Source: a bacterium
GTDB taxonomy: Bacteria; Patescibacteriota; Minisyncoccia; UBA6257; 02-FULL-45-10c
NCBI GenBank assembly: GCA_030646915.1
Contig: JAUSKT010000021.1
Coordinates: forward strand, 19,707-83,706
Length of the DNA: 64,000 bases
Reading direction: 5' to 3'
The position numbers and the translations under genes were made by a program. Under the pieces are notes generated by a model. It did not search any database and was not told the DNA's origin. It saw only the letters and a program-made list of their open reading frames with translations. This document shows, in pieces, positions 948 to 45,368 of this stretch. Numbering within the stretch: the first letter of the stretch is position 1; each line of letters begins with the position of its first letter.

Positions 948-2153
948 ATGCAGAGATATTATTTTGATTATGCGGCGGGTACGCCGGTAGATCCGATTGT
1001 GGAAAAAGCCATGCGTCCGTATTGGGCGGAAAAATCCGGAAATCCCGGATCACTTCATTTTTTCGGCCAAGAAGCATCTGCTGGAGTTTTTAATGCGCGC
1101 GATACGATAGCAAAAGCCTTAGGATGCAATTATAAGGAAGTTATTTTTACTGGCTCTGCAACGGAGGCGAATAATTTGGCGGTCAGGGGAGTTGTAAGAA
1201 GCTTCAGGCTTAAATTTCCAGGTATTAAGCCGAAAATTATAGTTTCAACAATTGAACATGAATCAGTTTTAGAAACTGCAAGAGACCTAGAAAGAGATGG
1301 TGTGGAAGTAGTTTATTTGCCAGTAGATAAAAATGGATTGGTGGATTTAAAGAAGTTAAAAGACGCACTGGATGAGCGGACAATTTTGGTTTCAGTAATG
1401 TATGTGAATAATGAAGTTGGGAGTATTCAGCCAATTAAAATGATTTCAGACATGGTTAAGAATTTCCGCGGCAGCAATAATTATCCATTATTTCACACTG
1501 ACGCAGTCCAAGCTTTTAATTATTTGAATTGTAATGTGAATGATTTGGGGGTGGACTTACTTACGCTTTCTTCCCAAAAAATTTACGGGCCGAAAGGATG
1601 TGGACTTCTTTATATAAGAAGTCAAAAGTTAAATGTCAAAAGTCAAATGTTGGGGCGAAATTTTATTTCGCCGATCATAACTGGCGGTTCGGCTCAAGAA
1701 TACGGGCTTCGCGCCGGAACGGAAAACGTGCCGGCAATTGTCGGATTTGGAAAAGCCATAGAACTTGTCTCTAATTCGCGCGAATTAGAGAATAAGAGAT
1801 TAAGGAAACTGCAGGAATATTTTTTGGCGCAGATGAAAAAAATTGCGCCTAAGGCAAAATTAAATGGCCCGGAAAATTTAAAAAATCGCATTCCCAATAA
1901 TTTAAATTTTTATTTTCCATCCCGCGAAAACGAATCAGGAACAGCCCAAGATTTACTGATTAAATTGGATTTAGCCGGTTTTGCGGTTTCGCCAGGCGCG
2001 GCTTGCACTGCCCGCACTTGCCAGCCATCGCATGTGCTGAAAGCTATGGGCTATTCAGATGAGCGCGCCACCAGCAGTTTACGGTTTACTTTTGGCAGGC
2101 CGATTTTTAAGAGTGATATTGATAAATTATTAAATGAGATAAAGAAATTTTGA
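948..2153 (+). CDS. iscS: cysteine desulfurase (class V aminotransferase, IscS/NifS)
   Basis: YFDYAAGTPVDP; SSQKIYGPKGCGLLYIR; GLRAGTENVPAIVGFG; C-terminal PGAAC active-site cysteine loop. Start set at MQRYYFDY (948). Stop is TGA. Confidence 0.9.
   Translation: MQRYYFDYAAGTPVDPIVEKAMRPYWAEKSGNPGSLHFFGQEASAGVFNARDTIAKALGCNYKEVIFTGSATEANNLAVRGVVRSFRLKFPGIKPKIIVSTIEHESVLETARDLERDGVEVVYLPVDKNGLVDLKKLKDALDERTILVSVMYVNNEVGSIQPIKMISDMVKNFRGSNNYPLFHTDAVQAFNYLNCNVNDLGVDLLTLSSQKIYGPKGCGLLYIRSQKLNVKSQMLGRNFISPIITGGSAQEYGLRAGTENVPAIVGFGKAIELVSNSRELENKRLRKLQEYFLAQMKKIAPKAKLNGPENLKNRIPNNLNFYFPSRENESGTAQDLLIKLDLAGFAVSPGAACTARTCQPSHVLKAMGYSDERATSSLRFTFGRPIFKSDIDKLLNEIKKF
1621..1648 (+). repeat. 4 x heptamer block GTCAAAA GTTAAAT GTCAAAA GTCAAAT, in frame inside iscS (encodes KLNVKSQML)
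   Basis: Direct read of the sequence. It coincides with roughly 10 extra residues relative to the IscS/NifS sequences I recall (LYVRxxxxLEPxxHGGG). Confidence 0.8.
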
Positions 2154-8885: not shown

Positions 8886-9077
8886 TAAATATCGGGAAAT
8901 TATTCTTTTGCTGAGGTCGATCCTTTGAATAGCGAAAGCGAAACAGGGGATAAGCAAAAAGGAGTAATTTTTTAAAAAGATTAACAAAATTAATAAATAA
9001 TATAAATTTTCTTCTTAGGTTTGAACGTCGATAATTTAGATCTAAAGAGAAAAAGGTCAAATAAAAATAAATTAAAT

Positions 9078-12000
9078 ATGAGTAAAAAATTAATACAAAA
9101 AGTTTCTACAACTGTAGTATCTATTGCTACAGTCGTTTCGCTTTCAGGCGCAGGAGCTTTGCTTCCAATGACAGTTAGTGGCGCAACCACAGCTGACTTG
9201 CAAGCACAGATTACTGCTTTGTTAGCGTCAGTAGCAGCTTTGCAAGCTCAATTAGGTTCAGCAACTTCTGGAACTTCCAGCGCTGCTTCAGCTACCTTAT
9301 TGTCTTCCGGGAACCTCACTCTCGGCAGCAAAGGAGCAGCAGTTATGGATTTACAGAAATTTTTGAATGCTAGTGGCGCGCAAGTTTCTGCTAGTGGCGC
9401 TGGCTCTCCTGGAAATGAAACTTCTTTCTTTGGTCCTGCGACCAGAGCAGCTCTTGCCAAGTGGCAGGCGGCTAATGGCGTTTCCCCAGCGGTTGGATAT
9501 TTTGGCGCGATCTCTCGTGCAAAAATGGCTTCTGTTGGTGGAACAACTGGCGGAACAACTGGCGGAACAACTGGCGGAACAACTGGAACAACTCCAGCCC
9601 CAGTAGTCCCAGCAGGCACTGGTTTGACGGTTACTTTAGCCGCAGATCAGCCAGCTCCAACATTAGCTCCTCGTTCAGCCGCCCGAATTCCATTCACTAA
9701 AATTCAATTAACCGCATCTGCCGACGGCGATGTAACGGTTAGTTCCTTAGTTGTGGAAAGAAAGGGTTTAGCTGAAGACGGCGCTCTTACTGGAATTCTT
9801 TTAGTAGATGAGAATGGAATTCAATTGGGCCTCAAAAAGACCTTGAATTCTTCCCATCAGGCTACTGTCGGTGAATCAATTGTGGTAAAAGCCGGTCAAA
9901 CTAGAACTTTGACTGTTGCCGCAAATAGAGACACTGCAGGCAGCCGTGGCGGTCAAACCGTTATGTTATCTGTTGTTGGAGTGAATACTTCAGCCGCAGT
10001 TAATGCAACCTTGCCGTTAAATGGAACCACTCAGACCATCAACGAAACCTTAACAATTGGTGACGTTACTATGGCTCGGGGCGGTAATGACCCAGGCACT
10101 AGCCGGACTAAGGAAATCGGTACTACCGGTTATACTTTTTCTTCGGTTAGAGTAACTGCTGGTTCAGCGGAAAAAGTTATTTTGAAGTCTATCCGATGGA
10201 ACCAGACTGGTTCTGCCGGCTCCGGTGATTTAAAGAACATCAAGTCTCTTGTTGATGGTGTTTCTTATGACACTGTGGTCAGCACTGACGGTAAATACTA
10301 CACTTCAACTTTTGGAGTCGGTATTTTAATGGACAAAGGTTCAATTAAAGATGTTTCTATTAAGGGTGATATTGAGGGGGGTTCTTTAAGAACTGTTGAC
10401 TTTGATATCGCGAAGATGACTGATCTCTTTGTAACCGGAGAAAACTTCGGCTACGGCATTGTTCCTCCACAAACTGGAACATCAGCTGCGACAGCTGACT
10501 CAGCCAATTTTAATAACACGGAAGATCCGTGGTATGATGCGGCTCAAGTTACTGTCAGTTCCGGGACTATGTCGGTAAGCAACTGGGCGGGCGTTCCGTC
10601 TCAGAATCTCGCCATTAATCTCGGCGGCCAGCCATTGGCTGGTTGGACGGTTGATGCAAAAGGCGAGCCAATCAGTGTTAGTAGTTTAAAGGTTACTTTA
10701 TACGGAGTTGGCACTACTAATGGAGTAGATGACTTAACTACCATATATTTGCAAAATGAAGCAGGAAAAATCTTAGCTGGTCCGATTGACGTTGCCAGCA
10801 CTGCCACAAATAATGCAATTATTACCTTTACTGACACTATTACTTTCCCAGTTGGAATAACTAACCTTACTTTAAAAGGTAAGCTGGGAACTGGTTTTAG
10901 CAATAATGACACCATTGCTGCTTCTACCACTCCAGGCGGTTGGACGACTACTGGTCAGACAACTGGATACTCAATTACTGCGACTCCGAGTACTGCTTTA
11001 GAGGGTCAGACAATGACTGCTAAGGGCTTAGCGCTGACTATCAGCGTTCAATCCACTCCAGCAGCTCAATCGATTGTCGGCGGAGCTCAAGGATTTGAGT
11101 TTACCCGATACACCTTTGATGCTTCTCAATCAGGCGAAGATGCCAAAATGAGCAGCGTTAATCTTGCAATTGACTACTCTGGCACAACTTCGGATAAACT
11201 ATCCGGTTGCCAGTTATGGGATGGCGTAACCGCTCTTAATACCGGCGGAAGCAATGTAGTAGACCCTACCGCAACTGCTTCTTCAACGGCATTTACTTTT
11301 GACACGCCATTAGTAGTTCCAAAAGGGACATCTAAGACGCTTTCTCTTAAATGCAATACGGAAACAGTTTCCGCTACTACGAATTATCGTTGGGGCATTG
11401 ATACCGATGCTTCATACACAGTAACAGGCTTAACTTCTGGACAATCAATTACTGACACGACTGTTGTGCCAGCCGCTAATAATAGCATTGGCCAATTAAT
11501 GTCTTTGACTACCGGCGGTTCTTACACCGTTACTGATGAAGATACCCCGGCTTACAGAATTGTAACGCCTGGCGCAGAAGAAACTTTGGGAAGATTGGCA
11601 TTCCAAGCCTCAACCGAGGCGATTGATGTCAGGGCAGTAGCGCTTAAATTAACCGGCGGTGCTTCTAATACCCCTAAAGATCTTCTTAACTTAAAGGTTA
11701 AGTTCTATGATGCGGCTAATCCTTCGGTTTCGATTGGTGAAGCTAATTTCGTAAATGAAGGGGATACTGCTACCGGCACGCTTGCCGTAGGAAGCTTTAA
11801 GGTGGAAAAAGGATACGGCGCGAGAAAGATACTTCTTATAAAAGGCACTATTGCTGACATCAGCGATGTTGCTTATGGGAATTATCAACTTACTGCGTCC
11901 GGCGACCTTCTTAAGGTTGATTACGATGGCGCTGCGGTTGGTTTGGCAAACGGCAACTACGGTGTTGGTTCGGCTGGCAATGTTTCCGGTCCGACCACTA

Positions 12001-12680
12001 ATACTACGTTAGCCGGCGTAAGGATAATGAAAGCAAAACCTGTTTTTGCTAAATTATCTTTGCCGAAAAATACCATCGCTGGCAACGCGGACCAGAGTGT
12101 GTACCGATTCTCTGTAGCAGCCACTAATGGAAATGTGGATCTTTATAAGGTCACATTCACTGTTGGCTCTTCAACGGTTTCGGCAACCACATCAGATTAT
12201 AAACTGTATGCCTTTACTGGTGCTGGCTTTAGCGGAGCGCTTCCGGGCTGGGCTGATTCTACTGGCTTATTGAATGCTGGCGGTTGCACGGATGGTTTAT
12301 CCGACACTTCTCCACAACGTTTAACTCTGAATGTTTATATGGATCAAACTGGCTGTGCTCAGGGTACTACTACCTTGAAGATTCCGATGGGGTCAACGTA
12401 TTACTTTGACTTGCATGCAACATTTGGCTCTGTTAGGACCACTACTGGATCTGAAAATATCAGCTTCCAATTAGAAGGCGATAGCGCTTTCCCAGTGAAT
12501 TCTTCTAACTTGATGCAACAAGCAAGTGGAGTTGATGGTGATGTTAGTGATGACCTTATCTGGTCACCGCGTTCAACAACCAGTCCTTCAGTTAGTAATC
12601 TTGACTTTACGAACGGAAATGGCGTTGATGGCTTGCCAGCTTCTAACATGAATCAGGAGACCCTAACGTTCACTCTGTAA
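9078..12680 (+). CDS. large cell-surface (S-layer-like) protein: signal peptide, peptidoglycan-binding domain, GGTT repeat linker, roughly 1000-aa Thr/Ser/Gly/Ala-rich beta-rich region
   Basis: Signal peptide MSKKLIQKVSTTVVSIATVVSLSGAGALLPMTVSGA. PG_binding_1-like segment LGSKGAAVMDLQKFLNASG...FGPATRAALAKWQAANGV. (GGTT)4. Almost no Cys. 460-nt upstream leader. Start moved from the track value (9021) to the ATG at 9078 in the same frame. Confidence 0.8.
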   Translation: MSKKLIQKVSTTVVSIATVVSLSGAGALLPMTVSGATTADLQAQITALLASVAALQAQLGSATSGTSSAASATLLSSGNLTLGSKGAAVMDLQKFLNASGAQVSASGAGSPGNETSFFGPATRAALAKWQAANGVSPAVGYFGAISRAKMASVGGTTGGTTGGTTGGTTGTTPAPVVPAGTGLTVTLAADQPAPTLAPRSAARIPFTKIQLTASADGDVTVSSLVVERKGLAEDGALTGILLVDENGIQLGLKKTLNSSHQATVGESIVVKAGQTRTLTVAANRDTAGSRGGQTVMLSVVGVNTSAAVNATLPLNGTTQTINETLTIGDVTMARGGNDPGTSRTKEIGTTGYTFSSVRVTAGSAEKVILKSIRWNQTGSAGSGDLKNIKSLVDGVSYDTVVSTDGKYYTSTFGVGILMDKGSIKDVSIKGDIEGGSLRTVDFDIAKMTDLFVTGENFGYGIVPPQTGTSAATADSANFNNTEDPWYDAAQVTVSSGTMSVSNWAGVPSQNLAINLGGQPLAGWTVDAKGEPISVSSLKVTLYGVGTTNGVDDLTTIYLQNEAGKILAGPIDVASTATNNAIITFTDTITFPVGITNLTLKGKLGTGFSNNDTIAASTTPGGWTTTGQTTGYSITATPSTALEGQTMTAKGLALTISVQSTPAAQSIVGGAQGFEFTRYTFDASQSGEDAKMSSVNLAIDYSGTTSDKLSGCQLWDGVTALNTGGSNVVDPTATASSTAFTFDTPLVVPKGTSKTLSLKCNTETVSATTNYRWGIDTDASYTVTGLTSGQSITDTTVVPAANNSIGQLMSLTTGGSYTVTDEDTPAYRIVTPGAEETLGRLAFQASTEAIDVRAVALKLTGGASNTPKDLLNLKVKFYDAANPSVSIGEANFVNEGDTATGTLAVGSFKVEKGYGARKILLIKGTIADISDVAYGNYQLTASGDLLKVDYDGAAVGLANGNYGVGSAGNVSGPTTNTTLAGVRIMKAKPVFAKLSLPKNTIAGNADQSVYRFSVAATNGNVDLYKVTFTVGSSTVSATTSDYKLYAFTGAGFSGALPGWADSTGLLNAGGCTDGLSDTSPQRLTLNVYMDQTGCAQGTTTLKIPMGSTYYFDLHATFGSVRTTTGSENISFQLEGDSAFPVNSSNLMQQASGVDGDVSDDLIWSPRSTTSPSVSNLDFTNGNGVDGLPASNMNQETLTFTL
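9541..9590 (+). repeat. 12-nt tandem repeat (GGCGGAACAACT) x4 encoding a GGTT linker
   Basis: Direct read of the sequence. The LAEQLAEQ ORF at 9367-9606 is the out-of-frame shadow of this repeat. Confidence 0.9.
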
Positions 12681-13564: not shown

Positions 13565-15271
13565 ATGAATAAAATAGGAAAATATTTTTTAGGGATTCAG
13601 CCATTTAAAATTTTAATTTTTATTATTTTGATTCTTGCCTTTTTGTTAAGATTTTGGAATGTTTGGAATCAAGATTTGTTCGGAGATGAAGCGCCGGACG
13701 CTTTTCGGGCAATTGGATATATAGATTATTTAGGCACTAGTTTTCAGACTCAGCCGATTGATTGGTACAAAAATACCGCTTTGCCCTGGTGGACCAGCCT
13801 TTCCTTCCACGATTTTCCGCCGCTGGCGATGATAATTCAGCACGCTTTTTTTGCGGTTTTTGGAGATTCGCTTTTAGTTGCCCGGTTGCCGGCGATAATT
13901 TTAGGAGTAATTTCGGTTTTTTTACTCTATTTAATCGCTAAAAAGTTTTTCGAAAATGAGATTTTGGCTTTATTTTCGGCCTTATTTTTCGCCATTAATA
14001 GCGAGATGGTATGGATTTTTCGTACTAGCATGCTAGAACCTATATTGCTATTTTTTATTTTGCTTAATATTTATTTTTTTTATCAGTTTATTTATGAAAA
14101 TAAATCCGGGCATTACTGGTGGCTTTTTGGAATAAGCTTGGGGCTGGTAACCTTGACTAAATACACAGGGGTTTTTTTGCTCCCGGTTTATATTCTTTAT
14201 ATTTTGATAACTAAAAGAGAAATTTTTAAAAATTGGAGATTGTATGCCGCTTTCCTTTTGGCCATCCTTTTATTTTTGCCGGTAATTATTTATAATATTT
14301 ATCTTTATAAAGCTACCGGGCATTTTGATTTGCAGATTTCCTATTTTCTTGGACAGGAGACGCCGGAATGGACGGGTTTAGTGGGGAAGATTCAATCGCC
14401 TTTTTCTGACATTCTTAAAAATTTGATGTTTCAGCAAAAAGATTCTGCCCCAAATTCCGTATGGCCGGTAGGTTATTATGGTTTGCCAGCTATTTTAGCT
14501 GTTTTGGGCGGAATAGTTTATTCCCTCCAAGATTTTCTTAAAAAGAAATTTAAAGGATTTGTATTTTTCAGCTTATATTTTATTTTTGTGACTTTGCTTT
14601 TGTTTAAAATCGGATCAGCGCATCGGTTTTTGGCCCTATATGGCCCCGCTTTTGCTATTTTTGCCGGTTATCTAGTGAATTCCCTATGGAATTTAAAAAT
14701 AAAAAAAGGAGTTGGTTTAGCATTTAAGGCGCTAATATTCATATTTTTTATTTGGGAATTATCTCATTCAATAAATACCAATTTTATTCAATATCCGAAT
14801 TATGGCATGGCTAATCTGGATAATTTTTTTAGAAATGAATTTCGAGGTAGAGAATCCGCGGTAGTTCCAGAATCGGATAATCCGCATTTAAATGACGTGA
14901 TTGGGGAATTTGTTGACAAAAAATCAGCTAATGCGCCGCGCGCCCTATGGCTGGTCATTTATAATGATAATGTCGCCCTGCCTACTTTGGAGTGGATTTA
15001 TTATAAAATGTTTTTTTATCACAGTATCCCGGCCATGTATGTTGAGAATTTTAATAAAGCAGTGAGTATTCAGGGTTCAGATTATTTTAAGGGCTTTGAT
15101 ATTTATTTTGTCCAAAGCACGGAAAATACTCCTTTGAATCAATTTAAAAAAGAGAAAACTGCCGGCTTGGAGTTTGAGAATCGCCTGCAAAAAATGGGAT
15201 TGCAGCCGATGAAAATTATTCACGGTCAAAATAATCTGCCGATGTTCAGAATCTATAAATTTTCTTTATAG
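13565..15271 (+). CDS. polytopic membrane glycosyltransferase, GT-C fold (ArnT/PMT-like, GT39/GT83-type)
   Basis: FGDEAPD acidic motif in the first extracytoplasmic loop. More than 10 predicted transmembrane helices. 568 aa. Confidence 0.7.
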   Translation: MNKIGKYFLGIQPFKILIFIILILAFLLRFWNVWNQDLFGDEAPDAFRAIGYIDYLGTSFQTQPIDWYKNTALPWWTSLSFHDFPPLAMIIQHAFFAVFGDSLLVARLPAIILGVISVFLLYLIAKKFFENEILALFSALFFAINSEMVWIFRTSMLEPILLFFILLNIYFFYQFIYENKSGHYWWLFGISLGLVTLTKYTGVFLLPVYILYILITKREIFKNWRLYAAFLLAILLFLPVIIYNIYLYKATGHFDLQISYFLGQETPEWTGLVGKIQSPFSDILKNLMFQQKDSAPNSVWPVGYYGLPAILAVLGGIVYSLQDFLKKKFKGFVFFSLYFIFVTLLLFKIGSAHRFLALYGPAFAIFAGYLVNSLWNLKIKKGVGLAFKALIFIFFIWELSHSINTNFIQYPNYGMANLDNFFRNEFRGRESAVVPESDNPHLNDVIGEFVDKKSANAPRALWLVIYNDNVALPTLEWIYYKMFFYHSIPAMYVENFNKAVSIQGSDYFKGFDIYFVQSTENTPLNQFKKEKTAGLEFENRLQKMGLQPMKIIHGQNNLPMFRIYKFSL

Positions 15272-16395
15272 ACCGATTCAGTTTTAGATACCATTTTCTC
15301 TAAGCTGAATTTTTCCAATACTGCTTTTTGAGCCATTTTTCCCAATTCGTTGCCAATAGTTTTGTTAGTTATTAATCCATTGATGGCCCCTGCGAGTATC
15401 GCCGAATCTTTTTGCGCTACCATTAATCCATTCTCATGATTTTTAATCATTTCCGGTATACCGCCAGCTTCCGTAACCACAATTGGCAATTCCGCCGCCA
15501 TCGCTTCCAGTAATATATAGGGCAGTCCCTCTTTGATTGAAGACATAACGAAAATATCAAAAGCTTTTAGGTATTCGGCGTCATTTCCAGTCGGATTAAT
15601 AAAGAAAAATCTACTATTGACATTTGACATTTGACATTTGACGTTCAACTTTTTTAATTCTGGTCCTTCGCCGATTATAAAAAAATAAGCATTAGGAATT
15701 AGGGCGGCGGATTGAATGAGGGTTTCGTAATTTTTTTCTTTAACTAATCGGCCAATGGAGCCAATCCACGGATAATTGGAATTAGGAATTAGGAATTTGG
15801 AATTTGGAATTTTATTTGCTATTTCTTTCCGTGCTTCTTCTTTGGATAAAAATTTCATATTTGGATCAATGCCATTATGGATTGTAGTTAATTTATTTTT
15901 CGGCGCAATTTTGTATTTTAAGGCCAAATTATAGTCATATTCTGAAACGCAGATGATTTTATCTTGGAATAATGCGGAAAATTTATGAAGCAGAATATAA
16001 AACCAGCGGATTGGGAAAGATAATTCATTAGTTGGATTAAAAACCCAGCCATGGGCGGTGAAGACCACCTTCGGCGGCGAACATTTGACATTTAACATGT
16101 GACATTTGACTTTATAGATTTTGGCGGCCAAAGAGCCAAGAACTCCGGCCTTAGAACTATTCAGATGAATGATGTCCGGACGTTCTTTTTTGTATAATTT
16201 AATTAATTCTATTATTGCCAGCCAGTCATTTATAAAAAACGGCCAGATTTTATTGGAAAGCCAGCGGAGGTCTTTTTGGCCAAAAATAATTTTAGAATCA
16301 AATTGATTCTTATCTAAATTAGCAGACAAATCATGGACATATTTTTGAGCTCCGCCAATATCAGCCTTTGTAATTATATAGAGAACTTTTATCAT
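15253..16395 (-). CDS. glycosyltransferase family 4 (GT-B)
   Basis: EX7E motif EGLPYILLEAMAAELPIVVTEAGGIPEMI. Contains three in-frame heptamer blocks. Confidence 0.9.
   Translation of the reverse strand: MIKVLYIITKADIGGAQKYVHDLSANLDKNQFDSKIIFGQKDLRWLSNKIWPFFINDWLAIIELIKLYKKERPDIIHLNSSKAGVLGSLAAKIYKVKCHMLNVKCSPPKVVFTAHGWVFNPTNELSFPIRWFYILLHKFSALFQDKIICVSEYDYNLALKYKIAPKNKLTTIHNGIDPNMKFLSKEEARKEIANKIPNSKFLIPNSNYPWIGSIGRLVKEKNYETLIQSAALIPNAYFFIIGEGPELKKLNVKCQMSNVNSRFFFINPTGNDAEYLKAFDIFVMSSIKEGLPYILLEAMAAELPIVVTEAGGIPEMIKNHENGLMVAQKDSAILAGAINGLITNKTIGNELGKMAQKAVLEKFSLEKMVSKTESVYKENL
15617..15644 (-). repeat. 4 x heptamer block (TTGACAT x3 + TTGACGT on the top strand; GTCAAAT on the sense strand), encoding NVKCQMSNV
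   Basis: Direct read of the sequence. Confidence 0.85.
15781..15815 (-). repeat. 5 x heptamer block ATTAGGA ATTAGGA ATTTGGA ATTTGGA ATTTTAT (encodes IPNSKFLIPNS); a further ATTAGGA ATTAGGG pair lies at 15691-15704
   Basis: Direct read of the sequence. Confidence 0.85.
16081..16108 (-). repeat. 4 x heptamer block ACATTTG ACATTTA ACATGTG ACATTTG (encodes HMLNVKCSP)
   Basis: Direct read of the sequence. Confidence 0.85.
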
Positions 16396-16427: not shown

Positions 16428-17612
16428 ATGTTTAATAAAAATCCTCAAATAGCCGTTTTCTCGTTTGCTTATCATCCTTTTGAGGGGGGCGCTGAAATAG
16501 CCATAAGAGAGGTAATAAAGCGGCTTTTGGGTCTTAATTTTACTATTTTTACCTATAAATTTAATCGAAGCTGGTCCCCAAAAGAACGAAATGGCAATGT
16601 CGAAATTTTTCGGCTAGGGAGGGGAAGCAGATCTGGCAAATTATATGGCCGAATTTGGAGCAAGATTTTTTATATTTTTAAAGCTTTAGCTGAAGCAGAA
16701 AATTTGCATCAGCGGGAACGTTTTGACGCAATTTGGGCAGTCATGGCTTCTTATGGCGGTGTTGCAGCTTTATTTTTTAAATTAAAGCATCCAAAAGTGC
16801 CATTATTTTTAACTATTCAAGAAGGCGATTCGGAGCGGCATATGGTTTTGGGAAAATTTGGATTGGTGGGATTTTTAGGAAAAAGAATTATTAAAAATGC
16901 TGATTATATACAAGTAATCAGCAATTATTTAAAAGAGTTTGTAAAAAAAAGAGGCGCTGAATCGCCCATAGAGGTTATTCCTAATGGAGTAGATTTGGAA
17001 TTATTCAGCACCAAATATAGCAATGCGGAATTAAAGGCAATCCGTGAAAATTTAGGATTGAAAGATGAGTATGTCGTCATTACTACTTCCCGGCTGGTTT
17101 ATAAAAATGCAGTGGATGTTTTGATTGAAGCTATTGCGATTTGTAAAAGTAAAATGTTGAATATTAAATGTTTGGTTATCGGAGGCGGGCCGGAAAAAGA
17201 TAAGCTGAAATCCCAATGTAAAAAGTTAAAAGTTGATAACGATGTTATTTTTTTGGGGCAGATTCCCCAGCGGGACTTGCCCTTGTATTTGAAAGTTTCA
17301 GATCTCTTTGCAAGGCCTTCGCGTTCTGAGGGATTGGGGAGTTCTTTTTTAGAGGCGATGGCTGCCGGAATTCCGGTAATTGGTACTCCAGTAGGCGGAA
17401 TAGTGGATTTTTTAAAGGATGGCGAAACTGGTTTTTATGTGAAAGTTAATGATCCAAAAGATTTGGCAGATAAAATTTCTAAGGCTTTACGGGATCCGGA
17501 ACTTCGAAAGAAGGTTATCCATAACAGCCAGGTTTTAATCAGAGAAAATTATTCTTGGGATAAAATTGCGATTTTATTTAAAAATATTTTTGATCGCTTA
17601 ATCAATTTTTAA
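16428..17612 (+). CDS. glycosyltransferase family 4 (GT-B)
   Basis: EGLGSSFLEAMAAGIPVIGTPVGGIVDFL. A degenerate 7-nt periodic stretch at 17143-17175 encodes KSKMLNIKC. Confidence 0.9.
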   Translation: MFNKNPQIAVFSFAYHPFEGGAEIAIREVIKRLLGLNFTIFTYKFNRSWSPKERNGNVEIFRLGRGSRSGKLYGRIWSKIFYIFKALAEAENLHQRERFDAIWAVMASYGGVAALFFKLKHPKVPLFLTIQEGDSERHMVLGKFGLVGFLGKRIIKNADYIQVISNYLKEFVKKRGAESPIEVIPNGVDLELFSTKYSNAELKAIRENLGLKDEYVVITTSRLVYKNAVDVLIEAIAICKSKMLNIKCLVIGGGPEKDKLKSQCKKLKVDNDVIFLGQIPQRDLPLYLKVSDLFARPSRSEGLGSSFLEAMAAGIPVIGTPVGGIVDFLKDGETGFYVKVNDPKDLADKISKALRDPELRKKVIHNSQVLIRENYSWDKIAILFKNIFDRLINF

Positions 17613-17618
17613 TAATTT

Positions 17619-18734
17619 ATGTCAAAAAGAATTTTAATTGCAACTGGAATTTTCCCGCCGGATATAGGCGGTCCCGCGCTTTACAGCCAGAAATTGGCAG
17701 AAGAATTTTTAAAATTCGGAAAAAAAGTTACGGTACTTACTTACGGCAAAGGGTTTTTAAAAAGCAGCGATTATAAAATATTTGGCGTTTCCCGGTTGTG
17801 GCCTTCTGGAATTCGGCAGTTAATTTATCTTTTTAAATTATTGATTCAAGTTAAGGAATCAGACGCTTTATTAGCTATGGATTCTTTGGGTGCTGGTTTG
17901 CCAGCAGTTATAGCAGGAATTTTATTTAATAAAAAAGTGATTATTCGGATGGGGGGGGATTTTTTATGGGAAAAATTCGTTGAGTTTGGGCAAGGCAATG
18001 TTACTTTGACTGAATTTTATAAAAAAAATCTTCATAAAAGATTTCCTTTTTTGAATCGCTTGATAACTTTTACTTTAAAAGGGGCGAGTGCGGTTGTTTT
18101 TACCACCGATTTTCAAAAAGAAATATTTTTAGCCCATTACGGATTAAATCCCGACAAAACTTTTGTAGCGAGCAATGTTTTTAAAAAAGAAGCGGGCAAG
18201 ATCCAGCCCGAAAATATTGCAAAAACCATTTTGTGGGCAGGGCGTTTTTTAAAACTGAAGAATTTAGATTTTTTGTTGAAAATTTTTAAGCGCCTGCTGC
18301 CTTATAATCAAAACCTATCTTTAGAATTAGTTGGCGACGGTCCGGAAAAAAAGCGGATTGAAAAAATGGTTAAATCGGAAAAATTAGATGGGAAAGTTAA
18401 GATAAGCCCCGTAGCAGACAAATCGGCTGTAGCTGCTAAAATTATAAGCTCTTATTTTTGCATTTTGCCTTCTTTATCTGAAGTTAGCCCTAATTTTGCC
18501 CTGGAGTGTTTAGGCGCAGACAAGCCCGTCATTATTACCCAAGAAACCGGAATAAAAGAACAATTTCCCGGACTTATGTATGCCGATCCGAAGAAAGAAG
18601 ACAGTTTTTTTTCGGCCGCCCTTAGGCTGCTAGATAAAAATACATATTACAACTATCAAAAATTTATTTCTGAGATTTCTTATCAAAAGACCTGGCAGGA
18701 TTTAGCCAGTGAATATTTAAATTTATTAAAATGA
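17619..18734 (+). CDS. glycosyltransferase, GT-B fold (GT4-like, divergent)
   Basis: Two Rossmann-like halves. LVGDGPEKKRIEKM linker. C-terminal SEVSPNFALECLGADKPVII. Confidence 0.65.
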   Translation: MSKRILIATGIFPPDIGGPALYSQKLAEEFLKFGKKVTVLTYGKGFLKSSDYKIFGVSRLWPSGIRQLIYLFKLLIQVKESDALLAMDSLGAGLPAVIAGILFNKKVIIRMGGDFLWEKFVEFGQGNVTLTEFYKKNLHKRFPFLNRLITFTLKGASAVVFTTDFQKEIFLAHYGLNPDKTFVASNVFKKEAGKIQPENIAKTILWAGRFLKLKNLDFLLKIFKRLLPYNQNLSLELVGDGPEKKRIEKMVKSEKLDGKVKISPVADKSAVAAKIISSYFCILPSLSEVSPNFALECLGADKPVIITQETGIKEQFPGLMYADPKKEDSFFSAALRLLDKNTYYNYQKFISEISYQKTWQDLASEYLNLLK

Positions 18735-19870
18735 AAATTTTAACAATTGGTTCTGAAAGGAATCTTTTTAAAGATAATTCGGAAGCTCAAAAAAGAATTA
18801 AAGAATATGGGCAGCTTTATGACGAGTTAAGAATTATTGTTTTTAGTAATGCCGCAGATGAAAATAGCAATCTTCAATTGGGCGGGAACATTTTTATTTA
18901 TCCTACAAATCACAAAGTTAAATTATTTTATCTTTGGGATATTTATAAAATTGTAAATTCATGGAATTCATGGAAACCAGATATGATTACTTGCCAGGAT
19001 CCTTTTGAATCTGGTTTGGCTGGCTGGCTGTTGAAATTTTTTTTAAAAACCTCGCTTCAGCTGCAAGTTCACACTGATATTTTCAGCCCTTATTTTGGGC
19101 AAGAGTCGTTAAAAAATAAAATTCAATTGATGCTGGCTAAATTTTTATTACCGAAGGCAGATGGCATTCGCGTTGTTTCGGAAAGGATAAAACAGTCACT
19201 TAAGTCGAATGTCAAAGGTCAAATGTCAAATGTTATTGTATTGCCGATTTTTGTTGATATTAAGAAAATCCAATCTGCCAAAATAAAAGCTGATCTCCAT
19301 AAAAAATATCCGGATTATGATTTTATAATTCTAATGGCATCTAGGCTAAGTAAAGAAAAAAATATTGGAATGGCGATTGAGGCAATGAAAGAACTAAGTT
19401 TAAAGTCAAAAGTAAAAAGTAAAATGCTATTGTTGATTGTCGGTGATGGGCCAGAAAAAGAAAAGTTAATAGTTAAATGTCGAATGTTAAATGTTGTTGA
19501 TAATGTAAAGTTTGAGCCATGGACAGATGATTTGGTTTCTTACTATAAAACCTCTGATTTATTTTTGCTTATTTCCAATTATGAGGGATATGGCCGGACA
19601 GCAATAGAAGCAATGGCAGCTGGATTGCCGGTTGTTATGACTGATGTTGGTTTGGCTGGAGAAATATTAGTTGATGATTTAGATGGCAGAATAGTGCCGG
19701 TTGGAGATGCAAAAGCGCTTATAGAAGCAATTCTGCAATTACTAGAAAATCCTCTTAAAAGAGAAGAATTTAAGCAAAATAGCTTAAAATCGTTGAAAAA
19801 ATGGCCCACAAAAAAGGAATATTTGGAAAGATACAAAAATTCATTGAGTTTTAATAAGATGTTAAAATAA
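18731..19870 (+). CDS. glycosyltransferase family 4 (GT-B)
   Basis: EGYGRTAIEAMAAGLPVVMTDVGLAGEIL. Three heptamer blocks at 19204-19231, 19398-19425 and 19465-19499. Confidence 0.9.
   Translation: MKILTIGSERNLFKDNSEAQKRIKEYGQLYDELRIIVFSNAADENSNLQLGGNIFIYPTNHKVKLFYLWDIYKIVNSWNSWKPDMITCQDPFESGLAGWLLKFFLKTSLQLQVHTDIFSPYFGQESLKNKIQLMLAKFLLPKADGIRVVSERIKQSLKSNVKGQMSNVIVLPIFVDIKKIQSAKIKADLHKKYPDYDFIILMASRLSKEKNIGMAIEAMKELSLKSKVKSKMLLLIVGDGPEKEKLIVKCRMLNVVDNVKFEPWTDDLVSYYKTSDLFLLISNYEGYGRTAIEAMAAGLPVVMTDVGLAGEILVDDLDGRIVPVGDAKALIEAILQLLENPLKREEFKQNSLKSLKKWPTKKEYLERYKNSLSFNKMLK
19204..19231 (+). repeat. 4 x heptamer block GTCGAAT GTCAAAG GTCAAAT GTCAAAT (encodes KSNVKGQMSNV)
   Basis: Direct read of the sequence. 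Confidence 0.85.
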
Positions 19871-39880: not shown

Positions 39881-40201
39881 TTAATCATTAAATGGTAGAT
39901 ATAAATCTCCAATTTGCCAATCTGCTACCCCTTTAATAATATCAGCCATTTCTTTATGTTTTGGATGCGCTTGGAATGCTTTAAAAGCATCATTATTTTC
40001 AAAGACAGCTATTTCTACTAAATCTACGTTTTTACGAAGATCCAAATTCCAATTAACTTTCCAAAAAATAATTCCAGCCTCTTCTCCGCCACAATCTTTA
40101 TCTAGCGTTTGATAACGATTACAAATTTCTTGTTTTACTGTCTCTGGAGTGTCTGGCTTGAATGAAATTAATACCACGTGCCATAGTTTATTTTGTTCCA
40201 T
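39881..40201 (-). CDS. Dabb-family stress-responsive alpha/beta-barrel protein (copy 1)
   Basis: WHVVLISFKP...VDLVEIAVFEN. 106 aa. Paralog of 45039-45368. Confidence 0.75.
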   Translation of the reverse strand: MEQNKLWHVVLISFKPDTPETVKQEICNRYQTLDKDCGGEEAGIIFWKVNWNLDLRKNVDLVEIAVFENNDAFKAFQAHPKHKEMADIIKGVADWQIGDLYLPFND

Positions 40202-45038: not shown

Positions 45039-45368
45039 TTACAATTTACGCGATAATTGAAAATAAATATCGCCAACCTGCCAATCAGCGGCATTTTTAA
45101 GAATATCAGTCAGTTCTTTATGTTTTGGGTGCGTTCTAAATGCCTGTAGAGCATTATTATTTTCAAAAGCAGCTATTTCTACTAAATCTACGTTTTTGCG
45201 AAGATCCAGATTCCAGTCAACTTTCCAAAAGATGATTCCAGCTTTTTCTCCACCACAATCCTTATCAAGAGTTTGATATCGATCGTAAATTTCTTGTTTG
45301 AATATTTCTGAGGCCCCTGGTTTAAATGAAATTAATACTACGTGCCATAATTTATTTTGTTCCACCAA
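45039..45368 (-). CDS. Dabb-family stress-responsive alpha/beta-barrel protein (copy 2)
   Basis: About 75% aa identity to copy 1. A near-identical nucleotide stretch includes gctatttctactaaatctacgttttt. Confidence 0.75.
   Translation of the reverse strand: MVEQNKLWHVVLISFKPGASEIFKQEIYDRYQTLDKDCGGEKAGIIFWKVDWNLDLRKNVDLVEIAAFENNNALQAFRTHPKHKELTDILKNAADWQVGDIYFQLSRKL

Follow-up and report, generated by a model that had tools for sequence, protein, structure and literature searches.

An in-frame heptanucleotide array in an IscS/NifS-type cysteine desulfurase gene, and its counterparts in related candidate phyla radiation genomes

Our study concerns a 64,000-nt stretch of contig JAUSKT010000021.1 (assembly GCA_030646915.1), referred to here as the window, in which an IscS/NifS-type cysteine desulfurase gene carries a short head-to-tail array of 7-nt units of the GTCAAAT type. 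The array lies in frame and corresponds to a gain of exactly three units over the closest syntenic ortholog without it. Similar arrays were found in glycosyltransferase family 4 (GT4) genes of the window and in genes of related candidate phyla radiation (CPR) genomes, whose contig loci were gathered via IscS and GT4 homologs and are numbered L001, L205 and so on. The features at the IscS locus are as follows.

948 to 2153, forward strand: IscS/NifS-type cysteine desulfurase gene, 401 aa, its protein identical to NCBI MDO8430293.1.
1603 to 1623, forward strand: perfect 8-bp palindrome GACTTCTT-TATAT-AAGAAGTC in the conserved codons G-L-L-Y-I-R-S, its 3' arm ending in the first GTC of the array.
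1621 to 1648, forward strand: heptanucleotide array of four units, GTCAAAA GTTAAAT GTCAAAA GTCAAAT, running on into the GTT of the next codon (1619 to 1650 in Tandem Repeats Finder, TRF).
1629 to 1649, forward strand: net gain of 21 nt, or three units, relative to the syntenic ortholog L001; codons L228 to M234, peptide LNVKSQM.
1654 to 1672, forward strand: perfect 8-bp palindrome GGCGAAAT-TTT-ATTTCGCC just 3' of the array, codons G-R-N-F-I-S-P.

Judged by its sequence, the window IscS is an intact, functional-looking housekeeping gene. It matched solved cysteine desulfurases over residues 4–400 (E=7e-81, with IscS entries of the PDB at 1e-81), PF00266 is the precomputed domain of the identical protein, and both the pyridoxal phosphate (PLP)-lysine motif SSQKIYGPKG and the Cys-loop motif SPGAACTARTC are intact; fold, PLP-lysine and active-site cysteine loop place it among the IscS/NifS class V aminotransferases. 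MDO8430293.1 is annotated as a 'cysteine desulfurase family protein' from an unclassified metagenome-assembled genome. The best homologs belong to Ca. Harrisonbacteria, Wolfebacteria and other Paceibacteria; the nearest IscS in the databases is 73 % identical and a close relative of the window genome was not found there. The exact gene is carried by one assembly only, and the exact protein is absent from the contig index. The AlphaFold model of the protein has a confidence score (pLDDT) of 87 and a pTM of 0.89. The window as a whole has a G+C content of 36 % and is about 94 % covered by open reading frames (ORFs) in a greedy ORF call.

The sequence at 1621–1650 is GTCAAAAGTTAAATGTCAAAAGTCAAATGT. 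TRF reported a period of 7 nt in 4.1 copies with 81 % matches at 1619–1647, and a period of 14 nt in 2.1 copies with 93 % matches was the better fit. The 29-mer of the array occurs once in the window, with 0 occurrences expected from shuffles. With head-to-tail 7-nt units in at least three copies, the block is a heptanucleotide simple sequence repeat (SSR), and the heptamer block that the initial annotation had placed inside this gene is borne out by the sequence itself, by the TRF period and by the unique 29-mer, which no shuffle produced. The initial annotation had further described an insertion of about 10 residues. An insertion is confirmed by comparison with L001, but its size is exactly seven residues; a figure of about 11, in line with the initial estimate, is obtained against the best-matching solved IscS chains, 9wep and 4r5f, relative to which the window segment is longer by that amount. 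In most of the ten closest homologs the segment is the short version of 10 residues.

The IscS of L001 is the closest syntenic ortholog without the block (67 % amino acid identity), and L001–L004 have in common with the window the gene order RNaseH-like, IscS, apolipoprotein-like, small ORF and ClpB. At the site, the L001 codons are TAT ATT AAA AAT CAA AAA TTA GGA AGT GAT TTT, compared to TAT ATA AGA AGT CAA AAG (TTA AAT GTC AAA AGT CAA ATG) TTG GGG CGA AAT TTT in the window, with the gain in brackets. When the bracketed 21 nt are taken out, the window reads SQKLG and L001 reads NQKLG. The placement of the gain is ambiguous by rotation inside 1621–1651. A proto-unit, AATCAAAAAT, which amounts to almost two units, is already present in the unexpanded ortholog; the L001 site reads AAAAATCAAAAAT, and is the proto-repeat in an unexpanded allele that marks local expansion of an SSR.

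Arrays with the same gain of 21 nt, on the same proto-unit and at the same codon, were found in three other lineages (L206, L213 and L214). At this position, termed IscS site 3, L206 and L214 carry perfect (ATCAAAA) arrays of four to five units (five in L206), and the L213 array is (GTWAAAA) x 4.4. Identity between the arrays of the window and of L213 is 84 %, compared to 62 % over the gene as a whole. Within its 21 kb, locus L206 lacks a second strong heptamer array with a similar unit. Since the unexpanded ortholog already has the proto-unit and three other lineages show a +21-nt array on it, one of them without a similar array nearby, local slippage can explain the window block without import, and expansion on the proto-unit is sufficient for IscS site 3. 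An ordinary loop with accidental periodicity, the outcome under which the initial annotation would have failed, is contradicted by these periodic arrays at one codon and by a lag-7 signal among homologs.

This signal lies in the protein loop itself. In 120 IscS homologs, amino acid identity at a lag of seven residues is 0.24 at site 3, compared to 0.06–0.09 at other lags; the site spans 6 to 39 residues, and the inserts read as translated heptamers, some as inverted pairs (IIPNSQFLIHP, IWDLGFGIWDL and GFRVKGLE...LYPNPYTLYP). In the AlphaFold model of the window IscS, residues 227–237 (KLNVKSQMLGR) follow directly after the strand 219–223 with pLDDT <50, and the array-encoded residues align to a gap in solved IscS structures. 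The model thereby puts the array residues in a low-confidence, predicted disordered surface loop, as had been anticipated for them. The equivalent stretch of E. coli IscS, about R220–R237, is presumably part of the basic patch that docks partner proteins.

Arrays of the same kind recur in the window. A search with the relaxed family pattern GTCAAATGTCAAAT, allowing two or fewer mismatches, returned 15 matches where 1.2 were expected, and 14 of these lie in IscS and two GT4 genes. A degenerate three-unit scan found nine arrays, compared to one to four in simulations; eight of the nine fall in four genes (IscS, GT4-A, GT4-B and GT4-D), and all eight have GTCAAAT on the coding strand. The arrays of the GT4 genes are listed below.

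15253 to 16395, reverse strand: GT4-A gene, GT4 family.
15610 to 15653, reverse strand: GT4-A site 3, (GTCAAAT) x about 4, peptide KLNVKCQMSNV, in coding-strand reading.
15774 to 15814, reverse strand: GT4-A site 2, another unit (ATTCCAA/ATTCCTA) x 5, peptide IPNSKFLIPNS.
16078 to 16121, reverse strand: GT4-A site 1, GTCAAAT GTCACAT GTTAAAT GTCAAAT, peptide VKCHMLNVKC.
17144 to 17238, forward strand: in GT4-B (16428–17612), two degenerate GTYAAAW-like stretches, 17144–17173 and 17212–17238, flanking the GGGPE motif.
19201 to 19238, forward strand: in GT4-D (18731–19870), array GTCGAAT GTCAAAG GTCAAAT GTCAAAT, peptide SNVKGQMSNV.
19395 to 19497, forward strand: two more arrays of GT4-D, 19395–19429 and 19459–19497, flanking GDGPE, with peptides KSKVKSKM and IVKCRMLNV.

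The likeness of KLNVKSQM in IscS to KLNVKCQMSNV in GT4, noted in the initial annotation, is real and follows from the common DNA unit. Only sense arrays are seen because the reverse complement, ATTTGAC, contains the stop TGA, and a heptamer array crosses all three frames every 21 nt. The stop-free orientation together with the 21-nt increment therefore indicates that the arrays are translated. Among repeat periods in the window, period 7 alone is enriched (six arrays compared to 0.75 expected, with periods 8–11 at 0). Single copies of GTCAAAT outside arrays number four, compared to about 13 expected from a composition estimate, and since the single unit is not enriched, this is a tandem-repeat phenomenon rather than a dispersed signal. 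A dispersed motif resembling an uptake signal was rejected on the same count.

The surroundings of these genes were also inspected. On the basis of translated ORFs, and of Pfam calls in syntenic loci, nearly all of the window from 15253 to 63411 seems to form a single glycan-biosynthesis cluster, with several GT4/GT2 genes, PMT-like membrane proteins, epimerases/dehydratases and aminotransferases. Within the cluster, heptamer arrays occur only in the first GT4 group (15.2–19.9 kb), a group with its gene order kept in Harrisonbacteria L209 and L210. Two paralogous ORFs of about 106–109 aa (MEQNKLWHVVLISFKP...) lie in opposite orientation inside it, at 39881–40201 and 45039–45368 (reverse strand). 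Outside the cluster, a 12-nt tandem repeat, TGGCGGAACAAC x 4.2 with 97 % matches, was found at 9536–9586 inside a 1219-aa ORF (9021–12680); unlike the heptamer arrays, it is an ordinary in-frame repeat of a triplet multiple.

Beyond the window, the sequences indicate that the IscS array is one case of a genome-wide population of short (4–5 unit) in-frame heptamer arrays in Paceibacteria-type CPR. A metagenome scan with the IscS alignment, in which the matches listed were mostly distant homologs (40–55 % identity), served as an unbiased 1-Mb repeat sample. In about 1 Mb of related loci there were 99 period-7 arrays, compared to 10 each for periods 8 and 9, and most lay in long ORFs; the modal TRF period was 7, and copy number peaked at 4–5. 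Period 7 is thus over-represented relative to both other periods and shuffles. Arrays of the GTYAAAW type occur in frame at another IscS site (site 2) in Harrisonbacteria L205 (GTTAAAA GTCAAAA GTTAAAT GTTAAAA), at a third IscS site in L139, at the same phosphoglucomutase (PGM) site in L001 and L205, and in TsaE (L170). Their presence at three IscS sites in different lineages, in PGM and in TsaE upholds the view that the module is not specific to glycosyltransferases. Arrays of other units were found in TsaD, pilin and Avd-like genes of related CPR genomes, and several unrelated units coexist in single genomes.

A scan of a genome collection for (GTYAAAW)x3 gave, among the matches listed, mainly filamentous cyanobacteria, Bacteroidota and CPR, with (GTCAAAA)n dominant. 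Among the matches listed in L005–L124, (GTCAAAA)n of at least three units is common in Nostoc, Scytonema, Aerosakkonema, Okeania and Bacteroidota, where most of the arrays fall in intergenic sequence or short ORFs. Nine CPR loci (L037, L041, L042, L045, L051, L062, L081, L084 and L121) have (GTCAAAA)n inside ORFs of 250–940 aa. Two further observations come from individual CPR loci. In L207 (2354–4625 and 10579–10819) and L208 (6756–6834 and 10246–10873), the plant-telomere-like unit (GGGTTTA)n and its complement occur as inverted pairs in at least six genes within 12 kb, with units changed just enough to escape an in-frame TAG. In L208 (7005–7028; also L001, 2721–2746), PGM is interrupted at the junction between domains I and II, giving two ORFs; the L208 break lies exactly in a (GAATTAT)n array, the source of both the TAA stop and the ATG restart, and the intact PGM of L205 has a long insert at the position of this break.

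The array sites persist while their units turn over. All three array sites are present in 120 GT4-A orthologs at nearly constant length, site 3 comprising 15 residues in 108 of the 120, and lag-7 amino acid identity at these sites is 0.19–0.29, compared to 0.05–0.17 at other lags. The periodic peptides are lineage-specific: VKCQMSNVKC, VACRMSHVTC, LRPTTYDLRP and LYPKPSTLYP; LSTFDFRLST, LQTTNYKLQT and IPNSKFQIPNS; LKVKSEKLKV and LQLTTYNLQL. At the DNA level, the arrays of two syntenic clusters (L209 and L210) are perfect and occupy the same codons but differ in unit, as with (CTACGAC) x 4 and (CTACAAA) x 4; L209 also has an orthologous array of the GTCAAAW family at GT4-A site 3. Orthologous array sites carry differing units between genomes, and near-identical units recur at two GT4-A sites within each genome: GTCAAAT at sites 1 and 3 in the window, ACGACCT/ACGACTT in L209 and ACAAACT/ACAAATT in L210.

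This sharing within genomes was quantified over all arrays. Of array pairs separated by more than 100 nt in the same locus, 21.7 % differ by at most one mismatch, compared to 6.9 % of pairs from different loci (Fisher p=9e-12, odds ratio 3.7). At IscS site 3, the unit matches another array of the same genome in three of the four lineages with the +21-nt array: GTCAAAW in the window matches its GT4 genes and GTWAAAA in L213 matches its own IscS site 1, while L214 has ATCAAAA at site 3 and TTCAAAA at its IscS site 1. By a composition model, a random stop-free unit has a chance of about 2 % of falling within one mismatch of GTCAAAT; given this chance, and since 7 % of between-locus pairs are equally close, the IscS–GT4 match alone is suggestive rather than decisive. 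At the level of the ensemble, however, templating is supported, and it is likely from these comparisons that arrays of one genome exchange sequence. The unit match between IscS and GT4 would most likely have come from such inter-array exchange, by length-preserving ectopic conversion or template switching. A short patch was also seen in L210 (10385–10430), where all 14 differences from L211/L212, in 13,149-nt contigs of one population, fall inside a single 46-nt length-preserving patch; it lies in a PG_binding_1 gene and resembles a short templated or recombination patch.

The initial annotation had argued for a mobile or templated insertion; the second term stands at the ensemble level, and the first is not supported. 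No inverted partner of the IscS block was found within 1400–1900 and the block has no defined ends. There is no target-site duplication, the repeat running unbroken through the IscS junctions. Each of the eight window sites has its own array length, register and flanks, which is not the pattern of identical boundaries seen in miniature inverted-repeat transposable elements (MITEs) and elements of the REP or RPE type. Presence/absence and copy-number differences were absent among L001–L004 and among L210–L212 (99.9 % identical, from different samples; about 10 arrays), so that the copy-number polymorphism between close strains expected of an SSR was not seen in this small sample of related arrays. 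A transposon or MITE-like element is disfavoured for want of termini, target duplication and presence/absence alleles, and a hairpin or palindromic element was set aside because the predicted fold leaves the block unpaired and no sequence nearby forms an inverted partner to it. The block is neither specific to glycosyltransferases nor transposon-like.

The palindromes on either side of the array deserve separate mention. The L001 counterpart of 1603–1623 is a 7/8 quasi-palindrome in which three pairs differ from those of the window in a compensatory way (by eye from the codon alignment); at the equivalent of 1654–1672, L206 carries another palindrome and that of L001 is imperfect. In the predicted fold the IscS array is unpaired, single-stranded between two hairpins (z=-3.1), and the L205 IscS array is flanked by 16-bp and 9-bp stems (z=-8). 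At IscS site 2, four of the five array-bearing genes have a perfect palindrome of 12–16 bp directly 5' of the array, compared to stems of at least 12 bp in 0 of about 55 IscS genes without a site-2 array. These site-2 palindromes (L205, 10611–10647; L136; L126, 2450–2478; L207, 10549–10577) lie inside the conserved (E/K)I(S/A)(E/N)IIRNFR; their sequence differs per lineage by compensatory changes and their position is the same. Over all arrays the hairpin association is weak (15 % compared to 8 %) and it is strong only at IscS site 2. The palindromes could reflect hairpin-induced stalling and template switching, with quasi-palindrome correction, or a hairpin-recognizing enzyme.

On balance, we consider it probable, though by no means assured, that the IscS block is a translated heptanucleotide microsatellite that evolves in concert with other arrays through slippage and inter-array templating. 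A polymerase would slip or switch template on the pre-existing proto-unit and so add 7-nt units; only a gain of three units preserves the frame and the GTCAAAT orientation alone lacks stops, so that selection would pass just this form. A disordered loop would tolerate the added residues, which may be neutral at the protein level. The arrays lie in permissive loops, stay at the same sites over long periods and change unit in concert. Slippage or template switching with a 7-nt step would both generate and homogenize them, partly by length-preserving templated patches, with selection merely filtering for frame, absence of stops and permissive loops.

Several points weigh against this reading. Slippage was not directly observed, and copy number does not change in L001–L004 or L210–L212, with about 10 arrays at about 0.1 % divergence. 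The IscS units are imperfect and alternate, a period of 14 nt fitting better, unlike the product of pure and recent one-unit slippage. Slippage alone leaves unexplained both the sharing of units between sites of one genome and the many arrays that replace sequence at constant length, as at GT4 site 3 and the PGM site. Nor does this reading account for the 7-nt step, and the similarity of units within a genome could be inflated by common base composition.

The alternative that best survives is that the IscS block was copied in from a GT4-type GTCAAAT array at some other place in the genome, a templated insertion rather than a local expansion, by microhomology-mediated template switching or short-patch ectopic conversion onto a CAAAA microhomology. 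Its unit is identical or within one mismatch to same-genome GT4 arrays, two of its four units have the GT4-type ...AAAT ending, and it ends in AAATGTT, as do four GT4 arrays. Over the whole set of arrays, the reuse of units within a genome is significant, and both L213 and L214 have at IscS site 3 a unit that corresponds to the one at site 1 of that gene. At IscS site 2, a position without a proto-unit in orthologs, L205 carries a GTYAAAW array. That short templated patches do arise in these populations is shown by the 46-nt length-preserving replacement between contigs that are identical elsewhere. However, the proto-unit stands in the unexpanded ortholog, and L206 has the same gain of 21 nt in a 21-kb locus without a similar strong array. 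The unit match has a chance expectation of 2–7 %, and no donor with a longer exact match was found, the longest common stretch being about 13 nt (by eye). We therefore regard import as possible but unlikely.

A bolder proposal, to which we give distinctly little credence, is that Paceibacteria-type CPR may have an active templated process that writes and homogenizes heptamer arrays of 4–5 units at hairpin-marked coding hot spots. If true, the loops of many housekeeping and surface-glycan enzymes would be continually rewritten with genome-specific peptides of seven-residue periodicity, an unrecognized form of DNA-level concerted evolution or diversification of protein loops, possibly carried out by a dedicated enzyme. 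Such dedicated machinery, whether a hairpin-recognizing single-strand DNA enzyme of the HUH/RAYT-like kind or a short-template reverse transcriptase, with the block as the footprint or cargo of a truly mobile or programmed system, is improbable. The perfect palindromes that flank IscS-site arrays in the window and L205, the four of five site-2 array genes with 12–16-bp palindromes compared to 0 of about 55 without an array, the narrow array size (4–5 units) and the genome-specific units would all suit it. The palindromes, however, consist of conserved coding sequence and not imported DNA, hairpin association over all arrays is weak (15 % against 8 %), several unrelated units in one genome argue against a single template, and there is no presence/absence polymorphism. 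No candidate enzyme was recognized among the window ORFs, and no transposase, reverse transcriptase or HUH gene was obvious there, in an inspection of translated starts only, without a domain search or Pfam scan.

Very improbable, in our view, is a selected functional element such as a phase-variation switch, a protein-binding site, an antisense promoter or an RNase site. Most window arrays do lie in GT4 genes for surface glycans, a class of gene in which phase-variable repeats are classically found; TTGACA is repeated on the reverse strand; and the predicted mRNA fold leaves the array as a single strand flanked by two hairpins. A phase-variation locus is disfavoured all the same: IscS is a housekeeping gene, its array of four units is short and imperfect, and related arrays in population contigs show no frame-shifting variants of plus or minus 7 nt; the lack of length differences in 99.9 %-identical contigs argues against a hypermutable switch, though the sample is small. 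An antisense promoter was rejected after a consensus scan found no promoter-like site at 1300–2000, where terminator-like sites also numbered 0, and a structured RNA after the whole window gave 0 Rfam families and no tRNA. Units differ wholly between orthologous sites, which rules out a conserved sequence-specific reader; a conserved binding site is disfavoured, and GTCAAAT singletons are not over-represented. Coincidence or artefact, in the form of an ordinary lineage-specific loop with accidental periodicity or an assembly error, is scarcely credible, for although AT-rich loops rich in Lys, Asn and Gln can look repetitive and the exact gene is in one assembly only, the observed matches were never equalled in shuffles, the gain amounts to precisely three units, equivalent arrays stand at the same codon in three independent assemblies and the lag-7 signal extends over 120 homologs.

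The wider interest of the IscS array lies in its setting. Heptanucleotide repeats are a long-noticed peculiarity of bacteria, without an explanation and described almost only from intergenic sequence, and here they are found inside essential genes at conserved loops. The orthologs provide a before-and-after comparison, comprising the 21-nt gain, the proto-unit, length-preserving unit turnover and sharing within genomes, and this makes the generating process (slippage with a 7-nt step, inter-array templating and the palindrome link) testable by comparative genomics. Lineage-specific 'insertions' of CPR proteins and some split genes may be products of this process rather than functional innovations, and annotators and structure predictors should expect disordered loop segments of seven-residue periodicity.

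Among known systems, precedents close to the arrays in kind include the STRR heptamers of cyanobacteria, reportedly described by Mazel et al. in 1990, and the Rickettsia palindromic elements (RPE), which Ogata et al. are said to have reported in 2000 in frame in unrelated housekeeping genes. The CPR arrays resemble RPE in being short repeated DNA in frame in unrelated housekeeping genes, translated and tolerated on the protein surface, and related CPR (L207 and L208) carry inverted-pair heptamer arrays that form palindromic inserts. RPE span 100–150 bp, have defined ends and are alike in sequence throughout the family, whereas the IscS block measures 21–28 nt, lacks defined termini and an inverted partner and lies on a local proto-unit. 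Template-switch mutagenesis in E. coli, involving quasi-palindromes and direct repeats, has reportedly been described by Ripley and by Lovett and co-workers. Length-preserving patches, perfected palindromes and the spread of variants between neighbouring repeats, all seen in CPR loci, are likenesses to that process; unlike the sequence families it is a mutational mechanism, it would act in CPR by analogy, and it leaves the 7-nt step unexplained.

The phase-variable contingency loci of Haemophilus, Neisseria and Campylobacter, which are SSRs in genes for surface structures, are alike in having non-triplet tandem repeats in glycosyltransferase genes, where a change of one unit would shift the frame. 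In contrast to these SSRs, the CPR tracts are short, often imperfect and constant in copy number across orthologs, show no population variation, and also occur in IscS, PGM, TsaE and TsaD. A heptanucleotide example of phase variation is the hmw1A promoter (PMC8262952).

Heptanucleotide repeats are, according to Mrazek (2007) as summarized in PMC4679880, the most abundant long SSRs in most prokaryotic genomes, attributed there to polymerase slippage, and the same summary suggests that 7 nt is perhaps the polymerase contact length. TAACTGA repeats occur in Beggiatoaceae, Cyanobacteria and Bacteroidetes, with their in-gene orientation limited by stop codons (PMC4679880), and the GGGNATC repeats of Xanthomonas and Nostoc prefer four units (PMC4692102). 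The abundance of heptanucleotide SSRs and this preference for four units both accord with the slippage reading given above. Published cases are mainly intergenic and are reported as under-represented in coding sequence (PMC4679880, PMC4692102). Our literature search returned no paper that links heptanucleotide repeats to CPR/Patescibacteria or describes in-frame heptamer arrays in CPR. The arrays described here are like the prokaryotic heptanucleotide SSRs in forming short tandem arrays (2–6 copies, near four preferred), in the over-representation of period 7, in having genome-characteristic units, in an in-gene orientation restricted by stop codons and in their similar phylogenetic spread over filamentous cyanobacteria, Bacteroidota and CPR. 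Unlike the published repeats, they lie mostly in long ORFs, in frame, in housekeeping enzymes and at conserved positions, with lineage-specific units at constant length. What is new relative to the known heptanucleotide SSRs is that these arrays are in frame, conserved in site and evolving in concert in the housekeeping genes of CPR.

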